In this document: positions 3,962 through 61,744 of the stretch, piece by piece | Layout: the number at the start of each line of letters is the position of its first letter | How positions within the stretch are numbered: the first letter of the stretch is position 1 | Source of the DNA: a phage | DNA length: 64,000 nt | Sequence record: PZ386977.1 | Direction: 5' to 3' (one strand) | The notes under the pieces: generated by a model | What the model was told of the DNA's origin: nothing | What the model saw: the letters and a program-made list of their open reading frames with translations, nothing else | Database searches by the model: none | Position numbers and translations under genes: made by a program

Positions 3962-4453
3962 ATGTTTGTAGATGACGTAACTCGTGCCTTCGAATCAGGT
4001 GATTTCGCTCGCCCTAACCTGTTCGAAGTAGAAATCTCTTATCTTGGGCAAAACTTTAGCTTCCAGTGTCGTGCTACGGCTCTTCCTGCTGCAATCGTTG
4101 AAAAGGTTCCTGTTTCTTATATGAACCGTAAAATTAACGTGGCCGGTGATCGTACATTCGATGATTGGACTATTACAGTAATGAACGACGATGCTCATAG
4201 TATTCGTCAGAAATTTGTTGATTGGCAAGGTATTGCAGCAGGTCAAGGTAATGAAATTACCGGTGGTAAACCTGCTGAATATAAAAAGTCTGCTATCGTT
4301 CGTCAATTTGCTCGTGATGCTAAAACGGTCACTAAAGAAGTTGAAATTGTTGGCTTGTGGCCTACTAACGTTGGTGAAGTATCTCTTGACTGGGATTCGA
4401 ATAACGAGATTGAAACGTTCGAAGTAACTCTTGCTCTTGATTGGTGGGAATAA
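3962..4453 (+). CDS. 19: tail tube protein (gp19)
   Basis: 163-aa ORF directly after sheath gene, T4 gp19 size. Confidence 0.93.
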   Translation: MFVDDVTRAFESGDFARPNLFEVEISYLGQNFSFQCRATALPAAIVEKVPVSYMNRKINVAGDRTFDDWTITVMNDDAHSIRQKFVDWQGIAAGQGNEITGGKPAEYKKSAIVRQFARDAKTVTKEVEIVGLWPTNVGEVSLDWDSNNEIETFEVTLALDWWE

Positions 4454-51340: not shown

Positions 51341-54300
51341 ATGGCCGACATCAAACGTAAGTTCAGAGCCGAAGACGGTCTGGACGCCGGTGGCGACAAG
51401 ATTGTTAACGTAGCATTAGCCGACCGTACAGTAGGTACTGATGGCGTAAACGTTGACTTCCTGGTACAAGAAAACACCGTTCAAGTATATGATTCTACGC
51501 GTGGATATAACAAAGGATTTGTTGTTCTTTATGACAACCGTTTATATCAAGCAATAAATGATATCGTGTCTCCTTCCGGGGCATTTAACCTTTTACAATG
51601 GCGTGCAGTTCGTACTGATGCACAATGGATAACTGTCGCTTCTGGGAATTATCAACTTTCTTCAGGTGAATCGATTTCGGTTAACACTGGTGCCGGCAAT
51701 GATATGGTTTTCACGTTGCCAAATGCGCCGGTTGATGGTGACACTATTGTTTTGGCTGATATTGGTGGAAGAACCGGGGCAGTTAAAGTACAGATTAACG
51801 CGTCTGTGCAGAGTATTTTAAACTTTAGAGGCGAACAAGTTCGTACAGTTTTAATGACGCGTCCGCGTTCACAACTAGTGTTTGTGTTTAGTAATCGTTT
51901 GTGGCAGATGTATATCATTGATTATGGTAAAGAATCAATCACTGTTACACCTGCTACACCATATCAAGCGCAAGCAAACGATTTTATTGTTCTTCGTTTT
52001 ACTAGTGCAGCACCAATCGACATTACACTTCCACGTAATGCTAACAATGGTGATATAATCAGCCTAGTTGATTTAGATAAATTAAACCCACTGTATCATA
52101 CGATTATTAAAACATTTGATGATACAACGTCTATTGGCGAAGTCGGGACTCATATCGTCGAAGGCAGAACTTCTTCTGACGCGTTTTTTGTTTTTGATGC
52201 TGCAAATAGTTTATGGCGTATATGGGAAGGCGACCAGAAATCACGTCTTCGTATTATCCGTACAGATTCAAATATTCGCCCAAATGAAGAAGTTCTTATT
52301 TTTGGCACAAATAACGCTACAGCAGAAACTATTAATCTTACGCTGCCCACCGGAATTTTGAGTGGTGACACTGTTAAAATTTCAATGAACTACATGCGTA
52401 AAGGCCAAACAGTAAAAATTAAAGCTGCCGAAGGTGATACAATTGCTTCTTCTGTCGCATTACTTCAGTTCCCTAAACGTTCTGAATATCCACCTGATGC
52501 TCAATGGGTCTCTGTTACTGAACTAGAATTCAATGGCACTACTTCATATGTTCCTGTATTAGAATTAGCATATGTTGAAGACACCGATTCTGACACTCAT
52601 TATTGGGTTGTTCAACAGAATGTCCCTACAGTAGAACGTGTTGATGCTGGAACTGATGCTACACGAGCTCGTTTAGGTGTTATTGCTCTTGCTACTCAAG
52701 CGCAAGCAAATGCTGATTTAGAGAATACTCCAGCTAAAGAAGTGGCTATTACTCCTGAAACGTTGGCAAATCGTACAGCAACTGAAGCTCGACGTGGTAT
52801 CGCTAAAATTGCTACAACAGCACAGGTTAATCAGAATTCCACTGCAACATTTGTGGATGATACTATTGTTACGCCTAAAAAATTAAATGAGCGTACAGCA
52901 ACCGAAACTCGTCGTGGTCTTGCTGAAATTGCTACTCAGGCTGAAACAGATGCTGGTCTTGATGACACAACAATTATTACACCTAAGAAATTGCAGGCAC
53001 GTCAGGGTTCTGAAACACTATCGGGTATAGTTAAATATGTATCAACTACTTCTGCTACTCCTGCTGAAACTCGTGGAGCTGCAGGCACTAACGTTTATAA
53101 TAAAACCGTAAATAATTTAACTATTTCTCCTAAAGCCCTTGACCAATATAAAGCAACTTATGCTCAACAAGGTGCAGTAATTTTAGCTGTTGATAGTGAA
53201 GTAATTGCTGGTCAATCTCAGTCTGGATACTCTCATGCTGTAGTAACTCCTGAAACACTACATAAGAAAACTTCTACTGATGGACGTATTGGTTTAATTG
53301 AAATTGCTACGCAAGCAGAAACTAATGCTGGGACTGATTATACACGTGCAGTAACGCCTAAGACGTTAAATGATAGGAGAGCGACGGAAGGATTATCCGG
53401 CATAGCCGAAATTGCTACGCAAGTTGAATTTGATACTGGAACTGATGATACTCGTATCTCGACTCCACTGAAAATTAAAACTCATTTTGATTCTTCTGAC
53501 CGTACCAGTGTTAATTCTGATTCCGGTCTTATTGAAGAAGGAACCTTGTGGAACCATTATACTCTTGATATTTCTAAAGCAAATGAAACACAACGTGGTA
53601 CACTTCGCGTAGCGACTCAGGCAGAATCTAATGCAGGAACTTTAGATGATGTTCTTATTACTCCTAAAAAGCTTTTAGGGACTAAGTCCACTGAAACGTC
53701 TGAAGGTGTAATTAAGGTTGCTACTCGGGCTGAAACTGTAACAGGAACTTCTGCTAATACTGCTGTATCGCCTAAGAATTTAAAATGGATTGTCCAGAAT
53801 GAACCGACATGGGCTGCTACTACGGCAATTCGTGGATTCGTTAAAACTTCATCCGGTTCTATTACATTCGTTGGTGACGATACTCACGGTAGTACCCAGG
53901 ATCTGAATCTTTACGAGAAAAATAGTTATGCTATTTCTCCATATGAATTAAACCGTGTACTTGCTAACTATTTGCCATTAAAAGCAAAAGCTGCTGACGC
54001 AAGTTTATTAGATGGCATAGATTCATCTCAGTTCATTCGTAGGGATATTGCACAGACGGTTAATGGTTCACTAACCTTAACGAAACAAACTAATCTGAGT
54101 GCCCCTCTTGTATCATCTAGTACTGCTACGTTTGGTGGGTCAGTTTCGGCAAATAGTACATTAACTATTTCTAACTCCGGCACAGCTACTCGTCTGATTT
54201 TTGAGAAAGGACCTCAGACTGGAACTAACCCAGCACAGACGATGACTATCAGAGTATGGGGAAATCAGTTCGGTGGCGGATCAGATACAACACGTTCTAC

Positions 54301-55216
54301 TGTATTTGAAGTTGGTGATGAAACGTCTAATCATTTTTATTCTCAACGTAATAAAGATGGGAATATAGCGTTTAGCATTAATGGTACTGTAATGCCAATA
54401 AACATTAATGCTTCCGGTTTGATGAATGTTAATGGCGTTGCAACATTTGGTAGTTCAGTTACTGCTAATGGCGAATTTATCAGTAAATCACCAAATGCTT
54501 TTAGAGCAATAAATGGAAATTACGGATTCTTTATTCGTAATGCTGGTAATGACACCTATTTTATGCTCACTGCAGCCGGTGATCAGAGTGGTGGATATAA
54601 TGGATTACGTCCTTTGGCTATTAATAATCAGTCTGGTCAAGTAACGATTGGTGAAAGCTTAATCATTGCCAAAGGTGCTACTATAAATTCAGGTGGTTTA
54701 ACTGTTAACTCGAGAATTCGTTCTCAGGGTATTAAAACAACTGATTTATATACTCGTGCTCCTACCGCCGATACGACCGGATTCTGGTCAATTGATATTA
54801 ACGATTCGGCCACTTATAACCAATTCCCTGGTTATTTTAAAATGGTTGAAAAAACTAATGAAGTGTCTGGACTTCCATACTTAGAACGTGGTGAAGAAGT
54901 TAAATCTCCTGGTACTTTGACTCAATTTGGCAATACTCTTGATTCACTTTACCAAGATTGGATTACTTATCCAACAACTCCAGATGCACGTACCACTCGC
55001 TGGACACGTACATGGCAGAAAACTAAAAATTCTTGGTCAAGTTTTGTTCAAGTATTTGATGGTGGAAACCCTCCTCAACCTTCTGATATTGGCGCTTTAC
55101 CTTCTGATAATGCAACAATCGGAAACTTGACAATACGGGATTTCTTAAGGATTGGTAATGTCCGCGTTATTCCAGACCCTGTGAATAAATCTGTTAAATT
55201 CGAGTGGATTGAATAA
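51341..55216 (+). CDS. 34: long tail fibre proximal subunit (gp34)
   Basis: 1291-aa ORF; internal repeated motif family (R-x-x-L-G-V-I-A-L-A-T-Q-A-Q type). Confidence 0.93.
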   Translation: MADIKRKFRAEDGLDAGGDKIVNVALADRTVGTDGVNVDFLVQENTVQVYDSTRGYNKGFVVLYDNRLYQAINDIVSPSGAFNLLQWRAVRTDAQWITVASGNYQLSSGESISVNTGAGNDMVFTLPNAPVDGDTIVLADIGGRTGAVKVQINASVQSILNFRGEQVRTVLMTRPRSQLVFVFSNRLWQMYIIDYGKESITVTPATPYQAQANDFIVLRFTSAAPIDITLPRNANNGDIISLVDLDKLNPLYHTIIKTFDDTTSIGEVGTHIVEGRTSSDAFFVFDAANSLWRIWEGDQKSRLRIIRTDSNIRPNEEVLIFGTNNATAETINLTLPTGILSGDTVKISMNYMRKGQTVKIKAAEGDTIASSVALLQFPKRSEYPPDAQWVSVTELEFNGTTSYVPVLELAYVEDTDSDTHYWVVQQNVPTVERVDAGTDATRARLGVIALATQAQANADLENTPAKEVAITPETLANRTATEARRGIAKIATTAQVNQNSTATFVDDTIVTPKKLNERTATETRRGLAEIATQAETDAGLDDTTIITPKKLQARQGSETLSGIVKYVSTTSATPAETRGAAGTNVYNKTVNNLTISPKALDQYKATYAQQGAVILAVDSEVIAGQSQSGYSHAVVTPETLHKKTSTDGRIGLIEIATQAETNAGTDYTRAVTPKTLNDRRATEGLSGIAEIATQVEFDTGTDDTRISTPLKIKTHFDSSDRTSVNSDSGLIEEGTLWNHYTLDISKANETQRGTLRVATQAESNAGTLDDVLITPKKLLGTKSTETSEGVIKVATRAETVTGTSANTAVSPKNLKWIVQNEPTWAATTAIRGFVKTSSGSITFVGDDTHGSTQDLNLYEKNSYAISPYELNRVLANYLPLKAKAADASLLDGIDSSQFIRRDIAQTVNGSLTLTKQTNLSAPLVSSSTATFGGSVSANSTLTISNSGTATRLIFEKGPQTGTNPAQTMTIRVWGNQFGGGSDTTRSTVFEVGDETSNHFYSQRNKDGNIAFSINGTVMPININASGLMNVNGVATFGSSVTANGEFISKSPNAFRAINGNYGFFIRNAGNDTYFMLTAAGDQSGGYNGLRPLAINNQSGQVTIGESLIIAKGATINSGGLTVNSRIRSQGIKTTDLYTRAPTADTTGFWSIDINDSATYNQFPGYFKMVEKTNEVSGLPYLERGEEVKSPGTLTQFGNTLDSLYQDWITYPTTPDARTTRWTRTWQKTKNSWSSFVQVFDGGNPPQPSDIGALPSDNATIGNLTIRDFLRIGNVRVIPDPVNKSVKFEWIE

Positions 55217-55224
55217 GAGGTATT

Positions 55225-56352
55225 ATGGAAAAATTTATGGCTAAGTTTGGACAAGGATACGTCCAAACGCCATTTTTATCGGAAAGCAATTCAGTACGAT
55301 TTAAATTAAGCATAGCGGGCTCTTGTCCGCTATCAACATCTCCTGCTTATATTAAGTTCCAGGATAATCCACTTGGGTCCCAGGTTTTTTCCGTTGGATT
55401 AAACGTTCGTGTAATAAATCCTACAACAGGTGCAGTAGTTGAATCTAAGTCATATAATTTCTCTACTGAAAACGACGCCACGTCAAGTGCATTTGTTACT
55501 TTCATGGACACATATGCTTCAAATTTTATATTTGCTCTTGTTACTAATGCTAAAACAAACTTTCCTCCTGAAGTTCTTGCATGGTTTACTAAAGCTGGGA
55601 GTTCTGCTATTCCATTAGCTCAACAAGTTTTAAATATAGTGGACATTTCTTATTCTGCATTTTATATTTCTGGTAAGAATGCTATAGCACTAGAACATAT
55701 TAAGTATAGTAATAAGAAAACTTCAACCGACTATAGTACACCACTTGATGTTGTGTACGACACGATTGATGATATTGGTGCTACTGGCTTCCCTAGTCGT
55801 ACGTACGAATCGACAGACACATTTTTATCTGCTGTTGGAGGTACTAATAATGAAATTAAAAGGATGCCTACAACGTCCATTATTACACCTCTCGCCGGGT
55901 ATAAATTGAAGCCTGGAGATTTCCTTTATATGAAATTCCAACTAATGGCTGATGCCGATTTGTTAGCACAAGGGACGACACGACTTTCTATTCGTTTCTT
56001 TAAATCTCCTTCTACTTCACCTATTTCATTTAAGGATATAAACTTTGATGGGGCTGCAGGTGAATGGAAGATATATGAAGACTACATAGAAATTCCTGCT
56101 GGTGCTGATGGGTTCACGATTTATTGTTATCGTACAGCTCCAGACGGGCAAGGTGGATTAAGAAACGTTATATTCACTGAAGTATCATGTAATGGAAGCG
56201 TTTCAAAACCTGCGGAGTTTGGTATAAATGGTATTCGTGTAAATTATGTTTCAGAATCTTTAAGTGCCCCAGACATAATGACATTACCTACTCAATCTTC
56301 AACTGATACTGGTAAGGTATTTGGACAAGAATTTAAAGAAGCATCAGAATAA
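55225..56352 (+). CDS. 35: long tail fibre hinge connector (gp35)
   Basis: 375-aa ORF between 34 and 36. Confidence 0.88.
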   Translation: MEKFMAKFGQGYVQTPFLSESNSVRFKLSIAGSCPLSTSPAYIKFQDNPLGSQVFSVGLNVRVINPTTGAVVESKSYNFSTENDATSSAFVTFMDTYASNFIFALVTNAKTNFPPEVLAWFTKAGSSAIPLAQQVLNIVDISYSAFYISGKNAIALEHIKYSNKKTSTDYSTPLDVVYDTIDDIGATGFPSRTYESTDTFLSAVGGTNNEIKRMPTTSIITPLAGYKLKPGDFLYMKFQLMADADLLAQGTTRLSIRFFKSPSTSPISFKDINFDGAAGEWKIYEDYIEIPAGADGFTIYCYRTAPDGQGGLRNVIFTEVSCNGSVSKPAEFGINGIRVNYVSESLSAPDIMTLPTQSSTDTGKVFGQEFKEASE

Positions 56353-56357
56353 ATTTA

Positions 56358-56382
56358 GGGAGACTTCGGTCTCCCATTTTTG
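56358..56382 (+). terminator. intrinsic terminator after gene 35 (GGGAGAC-UUCG-GUCUCCC plus U5)
   Basis: hairpin then ATTTTTG. Confidence 0.8.
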
Positions 56383-56390
56383 TATAAATA
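56383..56390 (+). promoter_or_regulatory. late promoter TATAAATA upstream of gene 36
   Basis: TATAAATA immediately after the terminator, RBS AAGGAGA. Confidence 0.65.
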
Positions 56391-56414
56391 TGGTATACAT
56401 ATAAGGAGACAACT

Positions 56415-57074
56415 ATGGCCGATTTAAAAGCTGGTAGTACAACTGGCGGCGCTGTTATATGGCATCAAGGTAATTTCCCTTTAATGCCAGCAGGTGATGA
56501 CGTCCTGTATAAAACGTTTAAACTCTATTCAGAATATAATAAACCACAAGCGGCTGATAACGATTTCGTTTCTAAAGCTAACGGTGGTACTTATTTAAAT
56601 AAGGTAATTTTTAATAAAGGAATGACTGTCCCTGGCGCAGGATCAGGTGACAATGGTATTTTTGCTGGTCCTGGTGATAATGCCACGTATGATACTACAA
56701 ATATGGATATTGTTTCGTGGTACGGTATTGGTTTTAAATCATCACAAGGTTCAGCAGCCCGAACTGTTGTAATTAATACACGTAATGGTGATATTAGCAC
56801 AAAAGGTGTTGTATCAGCATCAGGTCAAGTAAGAAGTGATGCGGCTGCTCCAGTTGCAGTGAATGACCTTACTCGTAAAGATTATGTTGATGGACGAATA
56901 AATATTGTTACGGATAACGCAAATTCCCGTGTATTGCGTAAAGGCGATACCATGACTGGTACTTTAACAGCACCAAACTTTTTCTCACAGAATCCGGCGT
57001 CTGAGGCTAATCATGTTCCTCGTTTCGACCAGATTGTAATTAAAGATTCTGTTCAAGATTTCGGCTATTATTAA
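56415..57074 (+). CDS. 36: long tail fibre distal subunit, small (gp36)
   Basis: 219-aa ORF. Confidence 0.88.
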
Positions 57075-57082
57075 GAGGACTT

Positions 57083-60000
57083 ATGGCTACATTAAAACAG
57101 ATACAATTTAAAAGAAGCAAAGTGGCAGGAGTTAATCCTACTGCAGCACAATTAGCCGAAGGCGAATTAGCGATAAACTTAAAAGACCGAACTCTTTTTA
57201 CTAAAGATGACCTCGGTAATATTATTAGCCTAGGCTTTGCTAAGGGCGGGGATATTAATGGTAATGTAACTCAAACCGGCGATTATTTACAAAACGGCAC
57301 ATATAATCTTAATGGAAACCAGTTTGTTTATGCAGGAAAGTATATTGAATTCTTGCCAAAAACTGCTGGAAATGGTGCTTGGGCTAACCAACATTTGAAT
57401 AAAGCCCCTATCTTTACAGATTTAAGTTCAACTACTTCTGTTTCAGAATACCATCCGCTGATTAAACAACGCTATAAAGATGGAACTTTTTCTGCTGGTA
57501 CATTAGTAAACGAAGGTAGTTTTAAATTCCATTATATTGATGAAACCGGGACTTCAAAATACTGGACTTTTAATCGAAACGGTAATTTTCAAGTTGATTC
57601 CGGAAGTTTATTAGTATCTAATGGATATTTAGTTACTCAAAGTAATATTGAAACTAAAGCTGGTTCTTTAATTGGTCCTAAAGTTATTACCAAAAATATC
57701 AATGTGAGCACTAAATCTTGGGACACTAATATTGATACTGCATATGATTTAGTTTCATTACCGACTTGGCACTATATTCCAACCGAAACAGATTTGGATA
57801 CTAATGGTATAAACTACCTTCGTAAATTCCGCGGACATGTTTCTTCTGCTATTTTCCATGAAGTTGCTGATGCTCGTTCAGGTAAACCACAGAATATTTC
57901 GTATTGGACGGGACGTAATGCTGAAGTTTATCAATGGTCTTATACCACAGATGGGCGTATGTCTGTTGCTAATTCGATAGGTATAGGTCTTGCTGATGTT
58001 GGTGACCAAGGACGTTATCCATTGGTTTCGTTTGGTAAAGGTATTGCAATTGGTGACAATGATACTGGTATTAAATGGGTTCGTGACGGCGTTATCGATT
58101 TAGTTGCGAATGGTATTTCTGCCGGCACTATTCGTAATAACGGTATTAACAGTACTAAAAAATTGATGGTTGGTTATAGTCGAGATTCCGGTTCTACTTG
58201 GGATTTCCCAAATAATAACCAAGCAATGTTTACTGCGCGTACCGATGTTGATGGCAATAATAACGGTGATGGTCAGACTCATATCGGTTATAGCAGTAAT
58301 TCTAAAATGTATCACTATTTCCGTGGTACAGGTCGTATGTCTGTTAGCATGGGCGATGGACTTCTTGTTGAGCCTGGCATTTTAGATATTAAAACCGGTT
58401 CAAATTCGTTAAATTTGCGTGCTGATGGTACCATCGCTTCGGTTCAAACGTTAAAACTTAATAATGGATTATATTTTAATGGTGATGGAACTAATGCTTC
58501 TCTAGTTTTTAAAGCAGCTTCAGGTATTGATGGTACTAAGCAAATAATGTGGGAAGGTGGTACTCGTGCTGGGCAGAATAAAAGCTACGTAACTGTTAAA
58601 GCATGGGGTAATTCATTTAACGCATCCGGCGATCGTAATCGTGAAACTGTATTTGAAGTTAGTGACGGGCAAGGATATTATTTTTATTCACAGCGTGTGG
58701 CTCCAAGTGGCTCTGAAACTACTGGGCCTGTTGTAACCCAGTTCAATGGACAAGTTAATGCTAGAGGAAGCTTAATAACCGACGGAAGTCTTAGAGTTAA
58801 CGGATTAAGCACTCTAGTTGGCAACGTTACAATGAATAATGGATTGTTTGTTCAAGGTGGTGCCTCAATTACCGGACAGGTTAAAATTGGTGGAACAGCT
58901 GATGCATTAAGAATTTGGAATGCTGAATACGGGGCTATTTTCCGCCGCTCGGAAGCATCATTATATATTATTCCGACTCCTAAAGATGCTGGTGAAAGCG
59001 GTGGAATAAGTAATCTTAGACCATTGATAATAGAACTGAACACTGGCACAGTTAAAATGTCGCATGATGTTCATTTAGGAGATTCTGGATCTGGTACAGG
59101 ATTATTACAAGTAAGTAATAGTCTTAAAACTATTAAAATGATATGCCCAGTAACTATTAACGAACGTAATGCAGCGCTTACTCTAGATTCTCCTTCATCT
59201 TCTTCTGCTAATTATTTACAGGGTTCTAAAGCTGGAACTAGATCGTGGTATGTTGGTCTCGGTGGCTCTGGAAACGATTTATCACTTTATAGTCAATCTT
59301 ATGGACATGGTATTGTTATAAGCGATAATTTCGTGTCAATTAGTAAACCTCTTAAAGTTGGAAATGCTCAATTAGGTACTGATGGTAACATCACTGGCGG
59401 CACTGGTAATTTTGCTAACTTGAATACCACAATAAATAACCTTAAGACAGATATTGTCTCGAGTTACCCAATTGGTGCTCCGATTCCTTGGCCTACTGAT
59501 ACACCTCCTGAAGGTTATGCCATAATGGAAGGCCAAACATTTGATACTGGCTTGTATCCTAAGTTAGCTGCGGTGTATCCTTCTGGCGCTCTGCCTGATA
59601 TGCGTGGTCAAACTATCAAGGGTAAACCATCTGGGCGCGCTGTATTAAGTACAGAAGCAGACGGTGTTAAGTCACATAGCCATAGTGCAAGTGCATCAAG
59701 CACAGATTTGGGTACTAAGACCACTTCTAGTTTTGATTACGGTAGCAAAACGACTTCAAGCTTTGATTATGGTACTAAGACCAGTAATACCACTGGCAAC
59801 CATAACCATACGGTAAGTGGTAATACTAGTTCCGCTGGTGCGCACCAACACGCGCGTTCAGGTCCTCAGGTACAAGGCGGCATACCCACTAGCGTATTCT
59901 ATGATGGATACAATAGTGCGGGTCCAAACGGCAACGCTAAATTCACTGCAACCGTGAGTGGTGCTACTGCATCGTCGAATATGGCCAAAACTTCTTCAGA

Positions 60001-60220
60001 CGGTGCCCACACCCATAGTTGGTCAGGAACCACTAGCGCTACTGGTAACCATGCTCATACTGTGGGTATTGGTGCTCATACCCATTCGGTAGGTATTGGT
60101 GCTCATTCTCATACTGTTGCAATTGGTTCCCATGGACATACAATAACTGTAAATGCCACAGGAAATACAGAAAACACAGTTAAAAACGTTGCTTTTAACT
60201 ATATCGTTCGTTTAGCATAA
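57083..60220 (+). CDS. 37: long tail fibre distal subunit / receptor-binding fibre (gp37)
   Basis: 1045-aa ORF; C-terminal needle with repeated H-x-H boxes ([25 protein letters not shown]). Confidence 0.93.
59711..59770 (+). repeat. tandem 30-nt direct repeat inside gene 37 encoding G-[TS]-K-T-T-S-S-F-D-Y twice
   Basis: ggtactaagaccacttctagttttgattac / ggtagcaaaacgacttcaagctttgattat, differing mainly at synonymous positions. Confidence 0.8.
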
Positions 60221-60226
60221 GGAGAA

Positions 60227-60245
60227 GGGACTTCGGTCCCTTTTT
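60227..60245 (+). terminator. intrinsic terminator after gene 37 (GGGAC-UUCG-GUCCC plus U5)
   Basis: hairpin followed by TTTTT. Confidence 0.8.
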
Positions 60246-60250
60246 ATAAT

Positions 60251-60802
60251 ATGAAACTCTATCACTATTATTTTGACACTAAAGAATTTTACAAAGAAGA
60301 AAATTATAAACCATTAAAAGGCGTAGGATTTCCGGCTCATTCGACACCAAAAAAACCTTTAGACCCTAAAGAAGGCTATGCTGTTATATTTGACGAACGC
60401 GAGCAAGAATGGGTATATGTTGAAGACCATCGAGGAAAAACAGTATGGACATATGATAAGCAAAAAATTGTTATTGACACTCCAGGTGCTCTTAAAAATG
60501 TTACTACAGAAGAACCTGGTGAATTTGACCTTTGGACCGACGACGGGTGGAAGGAAGATGAAGCATATAAACGCGTAGTTCAACGTGATAAGAAAATTCA
60601 TGAACTCTATAAATTATTCAGTGTTTTAAGTTCTCTTATTGACGCAGAGGTTGCTAATAGAGAAGAAAAACGAAAATTTAAAGAGCTCAAAAAATTCTTT
60701 GCCCTTTTAGAAAAACATGAACATCTTGGCGGCGAATTCCCTAAATTCCCTGACCTTGAAAACAAATCTATTATCAAAGCGATTATAAATATCTTTAAGT
60801 AA
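60251..60802 (+). CDS. 38: tail fibre assembly chaperone gp38 (T4 type)
   Basis: 183-aa ORF, no glycine-rich hypervariable adhesin segments; follows gene 37. Confidence 0.85.
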   Translation: MKLYHYYFDTKEFYKEENYKPLKGVGFPAHSTPKKPLDPKEGYAVIFDEREQEWVYVEDHRGKTVWTYDKQKIVIDTPGALKNVTTEEPGEFDLWTDDGWKEDEAYKRVVQRDKKIHELYKLFSVLSSLIDAEVANREEKRKFKELKKFFALLEKHEHLGGEFPKFPDLENKSIIKAIINIFK

Positions 60803-60811
60803 GGAGGTATT

Positions 60812-61471
60812 ATGGCAACACCAAAAGTATCATTTTCGCCTAGTGATATTCTATTTGGGTTGCTAGATCGTATTTTCAAAGATAACGCTACTGGAAAGGT
60901 TTTAATGTCCCGAGTAGCGGTAATTATTCTTTTGTTCCTAATGGCACTAATATGGTACAAAGGAAGTATTTTGCTGGATTATTATGTAAGAGCTAAGTAT
61001 GATACTTATACTGAAATAATCCAAAAAGAACGAGCTTTACGTTTTGAATCTGCGGCTCTAGAACAACTGCAAATAGTTCATATCTCATCTGGTGCAGATT
61101 TTAGTGCTGTGTATTCTTTCAGACCTAAAAACTTAAATTATTTCGTCGACCTTATAGCTTATGAAGGCAAACTGCCTAGCACAATTTCTGAAAAGTCCCT
61201 TGGGGGATTCCCAGTAGATAAAACGGCCAATGAATATATAATTCATTTAAGTGGCCGTCATTTCTCGTCTAAATCAGAATTTGCATTTTTGCCTACAAAA
61301 TCTAAGACTGCCGAACTTTCTTATATGTATAGTTGTCCATACTTTAATTTGGATAACATCTACGCTGGAACTGTGACGATGTATTGGTATAAGGGGAGTA
61401 ATATACTTGAGGAAGATCGCTTAGCAGCTATATGCAACCAAGCGGTCCGAATACTAGGAAGGGCTAAATAA
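60812..61471 (+). CDS. t: holin T
   Basis: 219-aa ORF with single N-terminal transmembrane segment (VAVIILLFLMALIWY) and large C-terminal domain; follows gene 38 as in T4. Confidence 0.88.
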   Translation: MATPKVSFSPSDILFGLLDRIFKDNATGKVLMSRVAVIILLFLMALIWYKGSILLDYYVRAKYDTYTEIIQKERALRFESAALEQLQIVHISSGADFSAVYSFRPKNLNYFVDLIAYEGKLPSTISEKSLGGFPVDKTANEYIIHLSGRHFSSKSEFAFLPTKSKTAELSYMYSCPYFNLDNIYAGTVTMYWYKGSNILEEDRLAAICNQAVRILGRAK

Positions 61472-61744
61472 TTAGTTGTTAGAATACATCGCTAAATGAC
61501 GATAAATATTTTCAAAACCTTCATTGAATTCACTAATCAGTGTTTTCTTTTCTTCGGCAGTTAAATTTGTAATTAGTTTTCTAAAAGAATTCTGATTTAG
61601 CTGCCGACCATCTTTTTTAATTCCAATCTCATTCAAGAAACCGATAAAACTTGCTCGGTCTTCAACAATATCTTCCCTAGAGAATTTAATCAAAATAGAA
61701 GCAATAGTAATAATTTCGCGTACGATTTCAATGTCTTTATTCAT
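61472..61744 (-). CDS. asiA: AsiA anti-sigma-70 factor
   Basis: 90-aa ORF, exact T4 AsiA size, convergent with t. Confidence 0.85.
   Translation of the reverse strand: MNKDIEIVREIITIASILIKFSREDIVEDRASFIGFLNEIGIKKDGRQLNQNSFRKLITNLTAEEKKTLISEFNEGFENIYRHLAMYSNN

Follow-up and report, generated by a model that had tools for sequence, protein, structure and literature searches.

The end of the long tail fibre genes in this phage raises the question of which part of the fibre reads the host, and whether a short tandem repeat lying just upstream of the fibre tip contributes to that reading. The window analysed here is the whole stretch of 64,000 nt (record PZ386977.1), in which gene 37 lies between gp36 (PF03903) on one side and gp38 and holin t on the other (Pfam), and is 88-95% identical in nucleotide sequence to Mosigvirus gp37 genes. 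The initial annotation had described a T4-type metal-binding tip on gp37, a tandem duplication able to drive length variation and a gp38 chaperone; this interpretation turned out to be mostly right and is partly supported, although the role given to the repeat needs correction. Domain limits were taken from Islam et al. 2019 (PMC6957217), who place the stem of T4 gp37 at residues 882-931 and 960-1009 and its tip at 932-959, with seven irons. The features of the locus are as follows.

57083..60220, plus strand: gene 37, encoding the 1045-aa distal subunit of the long tail fibre (open reading frame; Pfam gp37_trimer, Gp34_trimer and Collar)
59459..59671, plus strand: collar (D10) domain, N-terminal part, aa 793-863, aligning to T4 residues 811-881
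59672..59851, plus strand: ascending stem arm, aa 864-923, with boxes 1-3 (T4 882-931 plus a 10-aa insertion)
59675-59683, 59801-59809 and 59843-59851, plus strand: ascending H-x-H boxes 1-3
59711..59770 (59711-59740 and 59741-59770), plus strand: two tandem decapeptide units G[TS]KTTSSFDY, 30 nt each (T4 has one)
59852..60007, plus strand: tip (head) cassette, aa 924-975, 52 residues long, lying between boxes 3 and 4 and predicted to form the surface that binds the receptor
60008..60166, plus strand: descending stem arm, aa 976-1028, with boxes 4-8 (T4 966-1009 plus a 9-aa insertion)
60008-60016, 60050-60058, 60077-60085, 60104-60112 and 60131-60139, plus strand: descending H-x-H boxes 4-8
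60050..60139, plus strand: four H-x-H boxes at 6-residue spacing, a 9-aa or 27-nt period (T4 has three)
60167..60217, plus strand: C-terminal strand going back into the collar, aa 1029-1045, aligning to T4 1010-1026
60222..60245, plus strand: UUCG-tetraloop hairpin in the intergenic gap of genes 37 and 38, with GGGAC-TTCG-GTCCC at 60227-60240
60251..60802, plus strand: gene 38, encoding a 183-aa chaperone of tail fibre assembly homologous to T4 gp38 and lambda Tfa

Only eight H-x-H boxes were found in gp37, starting at residues 865, 907, 921, 976, 990, 999, 1008 and 1017 (nt 59675-60139) and following the spacer pattern [39,11,52,11,6,6,6]. They contain all 16 histidines of the last 190 residues; the remaining 855 residues hold 11 histidines and no H-x-H. 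Shuffling of the last 190 residues gave a mean of 1.25 boxes, and eight or more boxes arose in 1 of 100,000 shuffles. At least eight boxes had been claimed, and the eight found occur in exactly the contexts listed; the stated span of the last 180 residues is off by one, box 1 beginning 181 residues before the C-terminus. In the descending arm, Tandem Repeats Finder detected a second repeat, absent from the initial annotation: a 27-nt period at 60050-60117, which corresponds to H-x-H-x-V-G-I-G-A units with 18-22 of 27 nt common between copies.

A phmmer search against the PDB retrieved 2xgf_A with an E value of 5.8e-86 in two stretches (query 1-179 and 201-272) covering collar, stem and C-terminus, and Pfam Collar (PF07484) matched aa 798-845 with an E value of 3.8e-11. 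In a global alignment with T4 gp37, all seven T4 boxes (883, 915, 929, 966, 980, 989 and 998) aligned to boxes of the window, and the stem showed exactly two indels, one of 10 aa in the ascending arm and one of 9 aa in the descending arm, the latter carrying the one extra box. The proposed metal-needle tip of T4 type is upheld on the basis of the 2XGF match, the Collar domain and the seven aligned boxes. Entry 2XGF is the structure of the T4 gp37 receptor-binding tip, reportedly described by Bartual et al. in 2010. In addition, the C-terminal strand (aa 1029-1045) is almost invariant among 52 homologues. An AlphaFold2 monomer of residues 774-1045, built from a 52-sequence alignment, was uninformative, with a mean pLDDT of 50.9 and a pTM of 0.21, an intertwined metal-bound trimer not being representable as a monomer; the sole hint in this model was a pairing of the two 11-residue spacers.

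These observations are best explained, with a probability of roughly 85%, by a Mosigvirus long tail fibre whose distal end follows the T4 plan, with an eight-box needle, a separate gp38, a tip cassette and OmpC as the probable receptor. The anatomy, the homology, the co-variation of the two arms and the cassette pattern are read directly from sequence, whereas the trimer fold, the identity and number of the metals, the chaperone role and the receptor are inferred. By analogy with T4, three gp37 chains would exit the collar as the ascending arm, build a small receptor-contacting head and return as the descending arm into the collar, forming a six-stranded needle that metal ions (Fe2+ in T4) would staple along its axis, each held by the H-x-H of three chains. 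Three of the eight boxes of the window protein lie on the ascending arm and five on the descending arm, compared with seven boxes in T4, and the chain carries an extra G-x-K-T-T-S-S-F-D-Y decapeptide on its way out and an extra H-x-H-x-V-G-I-G-A nonapeptide on its return.

The two arms of this hairpin vary together across the family. Among 226 parsed homologues (152 distinct C-termini and 52 architectures, comprising sequences from the homologue search, which returned 2313 database homologues in all, together with T4, JK42, AV118 and the window), the first ascending spacer has a length of 9+10n (±1) in 225, where n, ranging from 1 to 6, counts the 6-residue spacers that separate the last descending boxes; the single exception is an unparsable sequence with the second box missing. 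Similarly, both arms have equally many 11-residue spacers in 226 of 226. The fibre end has a hairpin topology with matching arms around a variable head, and the decapeptide duplication is half of a matched insertion pair, making the needle one rung longer than that of T4. In a linear register, which is arithmetic from the published T4 domain limits and not from structure coordinates, the ascending decapeptide region would run alongside the closely spaced descending boxes, so that the two insertions would add one rung, lengthening each arm by about 10 residues and providing a predicted eighth metal site.

A broader reading, to be taken as tentative, is that the T4/lambda-type needle is built like a modular ladder, with paired insertions setting its length. 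The pairs may consist of an ascending G-x-K-x-x-x-x-F-D-Y decapeptide and a descending H-x-H-plus-6 nonapeptide (1 to 6 seen), and second pairs of an ascending H-x-H-plus-11 and its descending counterpart (0 to 2 seen). Both the metal-site count and the distance to which the fibre tip reaches may then be quantised and evolvable, and the eight-box form may be the standard Mosigvirus length class and no oddity relative to T4. Should needle length be tuned to how deep the LPS or O-antigen layer is, this would provide a design rule for fibre engineering. The arm-matching rule implies that stem units should be added or removed in pairs, a constraint for tip grafts among T4-, Mosigvirus- and lambda-type fibres, and it should also be useful when H-x-H counts are annotated as 'iron-binding capacity'.

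The tandem 10-aa duplication at 59711..59770 is real and diverged in its DNA as claimed, its copies being identical at 23 of 30 nt and 9 of 10 aa and followed by the start of a partial third unit (GTK). It was confirmed by direct comparison; Tandem Repeats Finder, with scores down to 30, did not report the 30-nt repeat because its DNA copies are too diverged. The initial annotation had proposed that this repeat drives length variation in the specificity region, that is, a recombination-prone local repeat would yield copy-number or length variants that modulate host range. Such a role could draw on the unit count, which runs from 1 to about 6 across the family so that copy number has changed in evolution, and on an exact 13-nt repeat (GGTACTAAGACCA) whose two copies, 60 nt apart, begin unit 1 and the partial third unit; duplications in the C-terminus of gene 37 are also reported for T4 host-range mutants, by Tetart et al. 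in 1996 (cited in PMC5221442). However, the units belong to the conserved ascending stem, outside the variable tip and some 50 residues ahead of it, and are too dissimilar in their DNA for a repeat of near-identical units. Two units occur in all six close relatives compared (the window, phiD1, O157 typing phage 3, JK42, AV118 and F31), which span four different tips and in which the copies have 22-27 of 30 nt in common, and exactly two were likewise found in eight distinct sequences with the tip type of the window. The suggested search for copy-number variants in related isolates therefore returned a constant two copies, and the features of a contingency-type tandem repeat (copy number differing among close relatives and near-identical units) are absent here. 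Furthermore, since the decapeptide count is locked to the count of descending H-x-H units (225 of 226), a slip in one arm alone should put the hairpin out of register. A repeat that varies host range through its own length is consequently improbable, and the matched stem insertion remains the preferred explanation of the duplication.

The variable element of the gp37 C-terminus is instead the 52-aa cassette in the interval between boxes 3 and 4. It has no detectable similarity to the 34-aa equivalent of T4, and is identical at 49 of 52 residues to phiD1 and at 38 of 52 to typing phage 3. In comparison with AV118 and JK42, divergence of the DNA is limited to approximately 59781-60080, with flanks and gp38 at least 95% identical. 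The same tip allele is present in more than 50 sequenced phages, the tips of AV110, AV112 and AV113 are 95-96% identical to it in nucleotide sequence, and phage F31 has a 5-aa tandem duplication within the tip. A match that seemed 117 nt longer in O157 typing phage 13 was considered as a repeat expansion and ruled out, as it is a run of N in the record. Specificity is predicted to lie within the 52 residues 924-975, and the cassette is probably exchanged among phages via recombination in the conserved flanks of the stem.

Specificity could lie outside gp37 if gp38 stayed on the fibre end as an adhesin, as in T2, T6 and S16; both arrangements have genes 37 and 38 in this order, and the old T4 record X55191 names gp38 'receptor-recognizing protein 38'. 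Gene 38 begins 30 nt past the gene 37 stop, behind the tetraloop hairpin (dG -15.7 kcal/mol, z -4.1), and a scan for sigma-70 promoters and terminators over 56300-61600 gave counts at shuffle expectation. Its product has the same length as T4 gp38 (183 aa), to which it is 66.5% identical over 98% of its length; it is also 99.5% identical to the protein of p000v/ATK47 and about 32% identical to lambda Tfa (lambda orf-194) at 75% coverage. It matched PHROG 105 'tail fiber assembly' (E 4.9e-49) and reached Pfam Caudo_TAP (PF02413) with 22.1 bits, exactly the gathering cut-off of 22.1, whereas the Pfam GP38 adhesin was not found in it at E<=0.01. The absence of glycine-rich adhesin segments noted initially was reproduced, since glycine makes up 4.9% of the protein with a single GG dipeptide, and no glycine-rich adhesin motifs were found in its 183 aa, in contrast to adhesins of about 260 aa. 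A PDB sequence search with gp38 gave only weak glutathione-transferase matches (best whole-sequence E 2.4e-4, domain E 0.84), which were judged to be chance. Besides, gp38 is nearly identical among phages with different tips, and the gp37 end is a T4-type needle and not a cleavable intramolecular chaperone. An adhesin role for gp38 is thus very unlikely, and the T4-type chaperone assignment was retained. T4 gp38 is required for trimerisation of gp37 and is not in the virion (PMC3004832); by homology, gp38 together with gp57A would fold the gp37 trimer without becoming part of the fibre. As gp38 is a T4/lambda-type chaperone and not an adhesin, specificity sits in gp37, which supports the initial claim that host range is set by the gp37 tip.

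By analogy with related phages, the primary receptor is most likely the porin OmpC. Genome-wide screens identified OmpC as the primary and Kdo as the secondary receptor of typing phages 3 and 6, JK42, JK36 and JK45, and 17 of 17 screened Straboviridae with T4-type gp37 target OmpC (10.64898/2026.04.02.716166); mogra, moha, mobillu, JS09 and HX01 are not listed in the supplements of that receptor study. Typing phages 3 and 6 share the tip type of the window, although identity to the tip of the phage whose receptor was measured is only 73%. OmpC dependence was shown experimentally for AV118 and predicted for AV110, AV112 and AV113 (PMC10844046). OmpC is nevertheless a prediction for the window, as the closest tip relative, that of phiD1, belongs to a phage recorded on Yersinia pestis. 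With the same architecture, the tip might recognise the LPS core alone or another porin: it is unrelated to the OmpC/LPS-binding tip of T4, AV122 and AV116 have T4-type gp37 and were proposed to be LPS-dependent (PMC10844046), and on E. coli B the only receptor used by T4 is LPS (PMC6957217). This alternative deserves some weight but is less probable than OmpC, as all 17 screened phages depend on OmpC despite their widely differing tips, typing phages 3 and 6 with the tip type of the window included. Host-range prediction or engineering should therefore target gp37 residues 924-975, and neither gp38 nor the decapeptide repeat; the window carries a widespread allele of a textbook module, which predicts host reading through the gp37 tip, probably via OmpC.

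Among known systems, the gp38 adhesins of T2, T6 and S16 are similar in that they occupy the same locus and host range is determined at the fibre end; however, they are unrelated proteins, about 260 aa long, in which glycine-rich motifs flank hypervariable segments, and they cap a cleaved gp37; none of these features applies to the window (Trojet et al. 2011, PMC3157838). The Yersinia T4-like phages of PMC7917993 use T2/S16-type gp38 and were set aside as irrelevant for comparison. As in the T4/lambda receptor-binding protein family and lambda Stf/Tfa, the last ~215 residues of the fibre are followed by a downstream gp38/Tfa-like gene, and over the C-terminal 272 aa the fibres of E. coli prophages show 57-68% identity. 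Unlike lambda Stf/Tfa, the module sits on a T4-type fibre of 1045 aa in a lytic phage, and among these chaperones its gp38 falls in the T4 branch and not in the lambda/SEN5 branch. Typing phage 3 and phiD1 are listed in the T4/lambda enteric family of receptor-binding and assembly proteins (Magaziner & Salmond 2022, PMC9659904).

The T4 gp37 tip (2XGF; PMC6957217) has the same collar, H-x-H hairpin stem and C-terminal strand, and its head likewise lies between boxes 3 and 4. The collar and the flanks of the stem are 74-82% identical, the gp38 chaperone of T4 is also separate and equally long, and an equivalent intergenic hairpin (GGGGC-TTCG-GCCCC) is in the same place. The T4 tip differs in having seven boxes and not eight, a tip of 34 and not 52 residues, and a shaft that is only 8-50% identical over residues 101-500. 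Also close are the Mosigvirus relatives (O157 typing phage 3, JS09, HX01, APCEc01, AV110 and mobillu) and the Tequatrovirus phages phiD1 and p000v. In this Mosigvirus-and-related group (typing phage 3, JS09, phiD1 and others), the stem architecture [39,11,tip,11,6,6,6] is that of the window, the tip type is 87-98% identical in nucleotide sequence, gp38 97-99.5% in amino acids and the genome backbone 96-97% in nucleotides, and only point differences are seen, which in the tip affect 3 of 52 residues relative to phiD1 and 14 of 52 relative to typing phage 3. The locus is an ordinary T4-like (Mosigvirus) fibre end of a known family, already sequenced and published.

A complete T4-type long-tail-fibre block (gp34, gp35, gp36, gp37, gp38, and holin t) occupies 51341-61471 of the window. 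Over a 22-kb stretch upstream, DNA identity to Mosigvirus phages (O157 typing phage 3, mogra, and JM17 among them) is 96-97%, which by sequence identifies the source as an RB69-group T-even phage. The two genes of interest are:

57083-60220, gp37 (1045 aa)
60251-60802, gp38 (183 aa)

All elements listed in the initial annotation (H-x-H boxes, a duplicated decapeptide, and gp38) are present where it placed them. Exactly eight H-x-H boxes were found in gp37, starting at residues 865, 907, 921, 976, 990, 999, 1008, and 1017, and they contain all 16 histidines of its last 190 residues; among 100,000 shuffles of these residues (mean 1.25 boxes), at least eight boxes arose once. The tandem decapeptide G[TS]KTTSSFDY lies at 59711-59740 and 59741-59770, its copies being identical at 9/10 residues and 23/30 nt. 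A second repeat, absent from that annotation, was detected by Tandem Repeats Finder at 60050-60117, where a 27-nt period encodes H-x-H-x-V-G-I-G-A units.

The C-terminal 272 residues of gp37, which include a Pfam tail-collar domain, matched the sequence of the T4 gp37 tip crystal structure (2XGF) with an E-value of 5.8e-86. Islam et al. 2019 (PMC6957217) assigned T4 gp37 residues 811-881 and 1010-1026 to the collar, 882-931 and 960-1009 to the stem, and 932-959 to the tip, and gave seven coordinated irons. Global alignment with T4 gp37 from record OZ209023 showed the flanks of collar and stem to be conserved (residues 801-900 are 74% identical) and revealed an aligned window box for each T4 box (883, 915, 929, 966, 980, 989, and 998), so the proposed T4-type needle appears right at the sequence level. 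Exactly two stem indels separate the proteins: the second decapeptide adds 10 residues to the ascending arm, and an H-x-H unit that contains the eighth box adds 9 to the descending one. Between boxes 3 and 4, T4 has 34 residues whereas the window has 52, with completely different sequence. AlphaFold2, run on the tip as a monomer only although the predicted fold is trimeric and metal-bound, gave a pLDDT of 50.9. The T4 record itself reads NGIGVGG at residue 939 where 2XGF has NGTGVGG; this T939I change is the 'Nib' substitution, for which Washizaki et al. 2016 (PMC5221442) reported abolished growth on E. coli B.

The relationship between the two arms was examined by coding homologue C-termini as spacer lengths between successive boxes, e.g., [29,11,34,11,6,6] for T4 and [39,11,52,11,6,6,6] for the window. 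The 120 best matches of a 5.8-billion-protein search, 150 representatives of a 1.8-billion-protein library, T4, JK42, AV118, and the window yielded 226 sequences parsable from collar to C-terminus (152 distinct C-termini, 52 architectures). In 225 of them, the first, decapeptide-bearing ascending spacer measured 9+10n residues (±1), n being the count of 6-residue spacers that close the descending arm (1 to 6 observed); the other one, P0233, has no second box and is not scorable. The number of 11-residue spacers (0, 1, or 2) was equal on both arms in 226/226. Sequences skipped by a first, stricter parser proved on reading to be fragments, chimeric ORFs, or altered-anchor variants, and the complete ones fit the rule, e.g., P0129 (four decapeptides, five 6-residue spacers) and P0230 (a 19-residue first spacer, one 6-residue spacer). 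Judged from these comparisons, the decapeptide duplication is one half of a matched pair of stem insertions.

A structural basis can be proposed from T4 box positions, counted from the published domain limits rather than coordinates. Box 1 lies about 2 residues from the stem base, descending boxes 7, 6, and 5 at about 10, 19, and 28, box 2 at about 34, box 4 at about 42, and box 3 at about 48, so that the 29-residue decapeptide-bearing ascending segment would flank three closely spaced descending boxes. One added descending unit (9 aa) would then need about one more decapeptide (10 aa), keeping the hairpin in register; the window gp37 is accordingly predicted to have one more metal site, the eighth, and to gain about 10 residues of stem on each arm.

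The duplication had been proposed to be a local repeat of a kind that can drive length variation in the specificity region, which is not what was found: the units lie in the conserved stem, outside the variable part. Copy-number variants were sought in related phages, and exactly two units occur in 6/6 (phiD1, typing phage 3, JK42, AV118, F31, and the window), which carry four different tip cassettes, as well as in all sequences found with the window's tip type. Within each of the six phages the units share only 22-27/30 nt, and orthologues are at most slightly closer than paralogues (26.6 and 25.0 vs 24.6 of 30 nt), which indicates an old duplication kept by protein constraint.

Compared with AV118 and JK42, the DNA encoding the collar, the decapeptide units, the final boxes, and also gp38 is 95-100% identical, and identity drops to 45-58% only at about 59781-60080 (AV118) or 59841-60020 (JK42). 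Such a distribution points to a cassette flanked by conserved stem sequence as the location of specificity. The window's cassette (aa 924-975, 59852-60007) is common to more than 50 phage records at 87-98% nt identity, including phiEC1, phiD1, p000v, JS09, HX01, APCEc01, AV110, and mobillu. In Escherichia phage vB_Eco_F31, a close relative, a 5-residue tandem duplication (QGGVP twice) within this cassette gives a 57- instead of a 52-residue tip; thus, the length variation sought exists, but in the tip, and F31 is by its sequence a natural length variant within the receptor-binding head. Further upstream, AV118 and JK42 each match gp37 over residues 1-450 at about 98% identity, whereas residues 451-750 (58430-59330) are 98-100% identical to AV118 and only 28-88% to JK42; this mosaic shaft implies a probable second recombination cassette. 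Many tip homologues from E. coli genomes (P0042, P0048, P0050, P0055, and others) are labelled terminase or tape-measure or have an unrelated N-terminus, and look like chimeras or wrongly called ORFs from tail-fibre loci of prophages. Their identity of about 60-68% to the window tip shows that the lambda-Stf-type needle is widespread in prophages.

With regard to receptors, genome-wide screens assigned OmpC as primary and Kdo as secondary for typing phages 3 and 6, JK42, JK36, and JK45 (10.64898/2026.04.02.716166, 2026 preprint); typing phage 3 has the window's tip type (38/52 identical). OmpC dependence was shown for AV117 and AV118 and predicted for AV110, AV112, and AV113 (Vitt et al., PMC10844046), the last three having tips 95-96% identical in nucleotides to that of the window. 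By analogy with these phages, OmpC is therefore the best guess for the receptor, with roughly two chances in three. An LPS-core or other specificity is the less likely alternative, in favour of which the closest tip (49/52 identical) belongs to phiD1, a phage recorded on Yersinia pestis.

T4 gp38 is the assembly chaperone for gp37 (PMC3004832; PMC3157838). The window gp38 shares 99.5% identity with those of p000v and ATK47, 66.5% with T4 gp38 across 98% of its length, and about 32% with lambda Tfa; it matched PHROG 105 'tail fiber assembly' (4.9e-49), and its Pfam Caudo_TAP score exactly equals the gathering score. The T2-type GP38 adhesin family of Pfam gave no match, and neither a glycine-rich motif nor adhesin-type glycine-rich segments are present (4.9% glycine), which supports its designation as a T4-type chaperone rather than a T2-type adhesin. 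Phages that differ in their tips carry nearly the same gp38, as expected if the chaperone recognises the conserved part of gp37. A glutathione transferase-like resemblance of its C-terminal segment KFFALLEKHEHLGGEFPKFPDL (aa 141-170, 60680-60790) is probably due to chance, the plant PDB matches being weak (6to3, E 2.4e-4 for the whole sequence and 0.84 for the domain).

The gene 37 stop is directly followed by an AAGGAG motif, and the gene 38 ATG comes 26 nt later; the two are separated by a UUCG-tetraloop hairpin (GGGAC-TTCG-GTCCC, 60227-60240; dG -15.7, z -4.1), the whole spanning 60219-60251. At the same position, T4 has GGGGC-TTCG-GCCCC (3970-4003 of its record), a compensatory base-pair change. 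T4 gene 38 has been described with a split ribosome-binding site, which this arrangement appears to resemble; some relatives have the hairpin annotated as a terminator. A second CUUCGG-type hairpin (GGGAGAC-TTCG-GTCTCCC, then a T-run) lies at 56358-56375, immediately past the end of gene 35 and ahead of gene 36.

Overall, the needle and chaperone assignments of the initial annotation stand, and the role it gave to the repeat does not, the decapeptide being a stem unit paired on the other arm. The arm-matching rule was not found stated explicitly in the literature; its explicit form is the one addition of the present analysis and may help fibre engineering. All features tested at the sequence level place the module in the T4 gp37/gp38 family. 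The T4/lambda family of receptor-binding and assembly proteins has already been described, with typing phage 3 and phiD1 listed (Magaziner and Salmond, PMC9659904), both of which carry the window's allele; the fibre-tip/chaperone module is therefore already known and ordinary.
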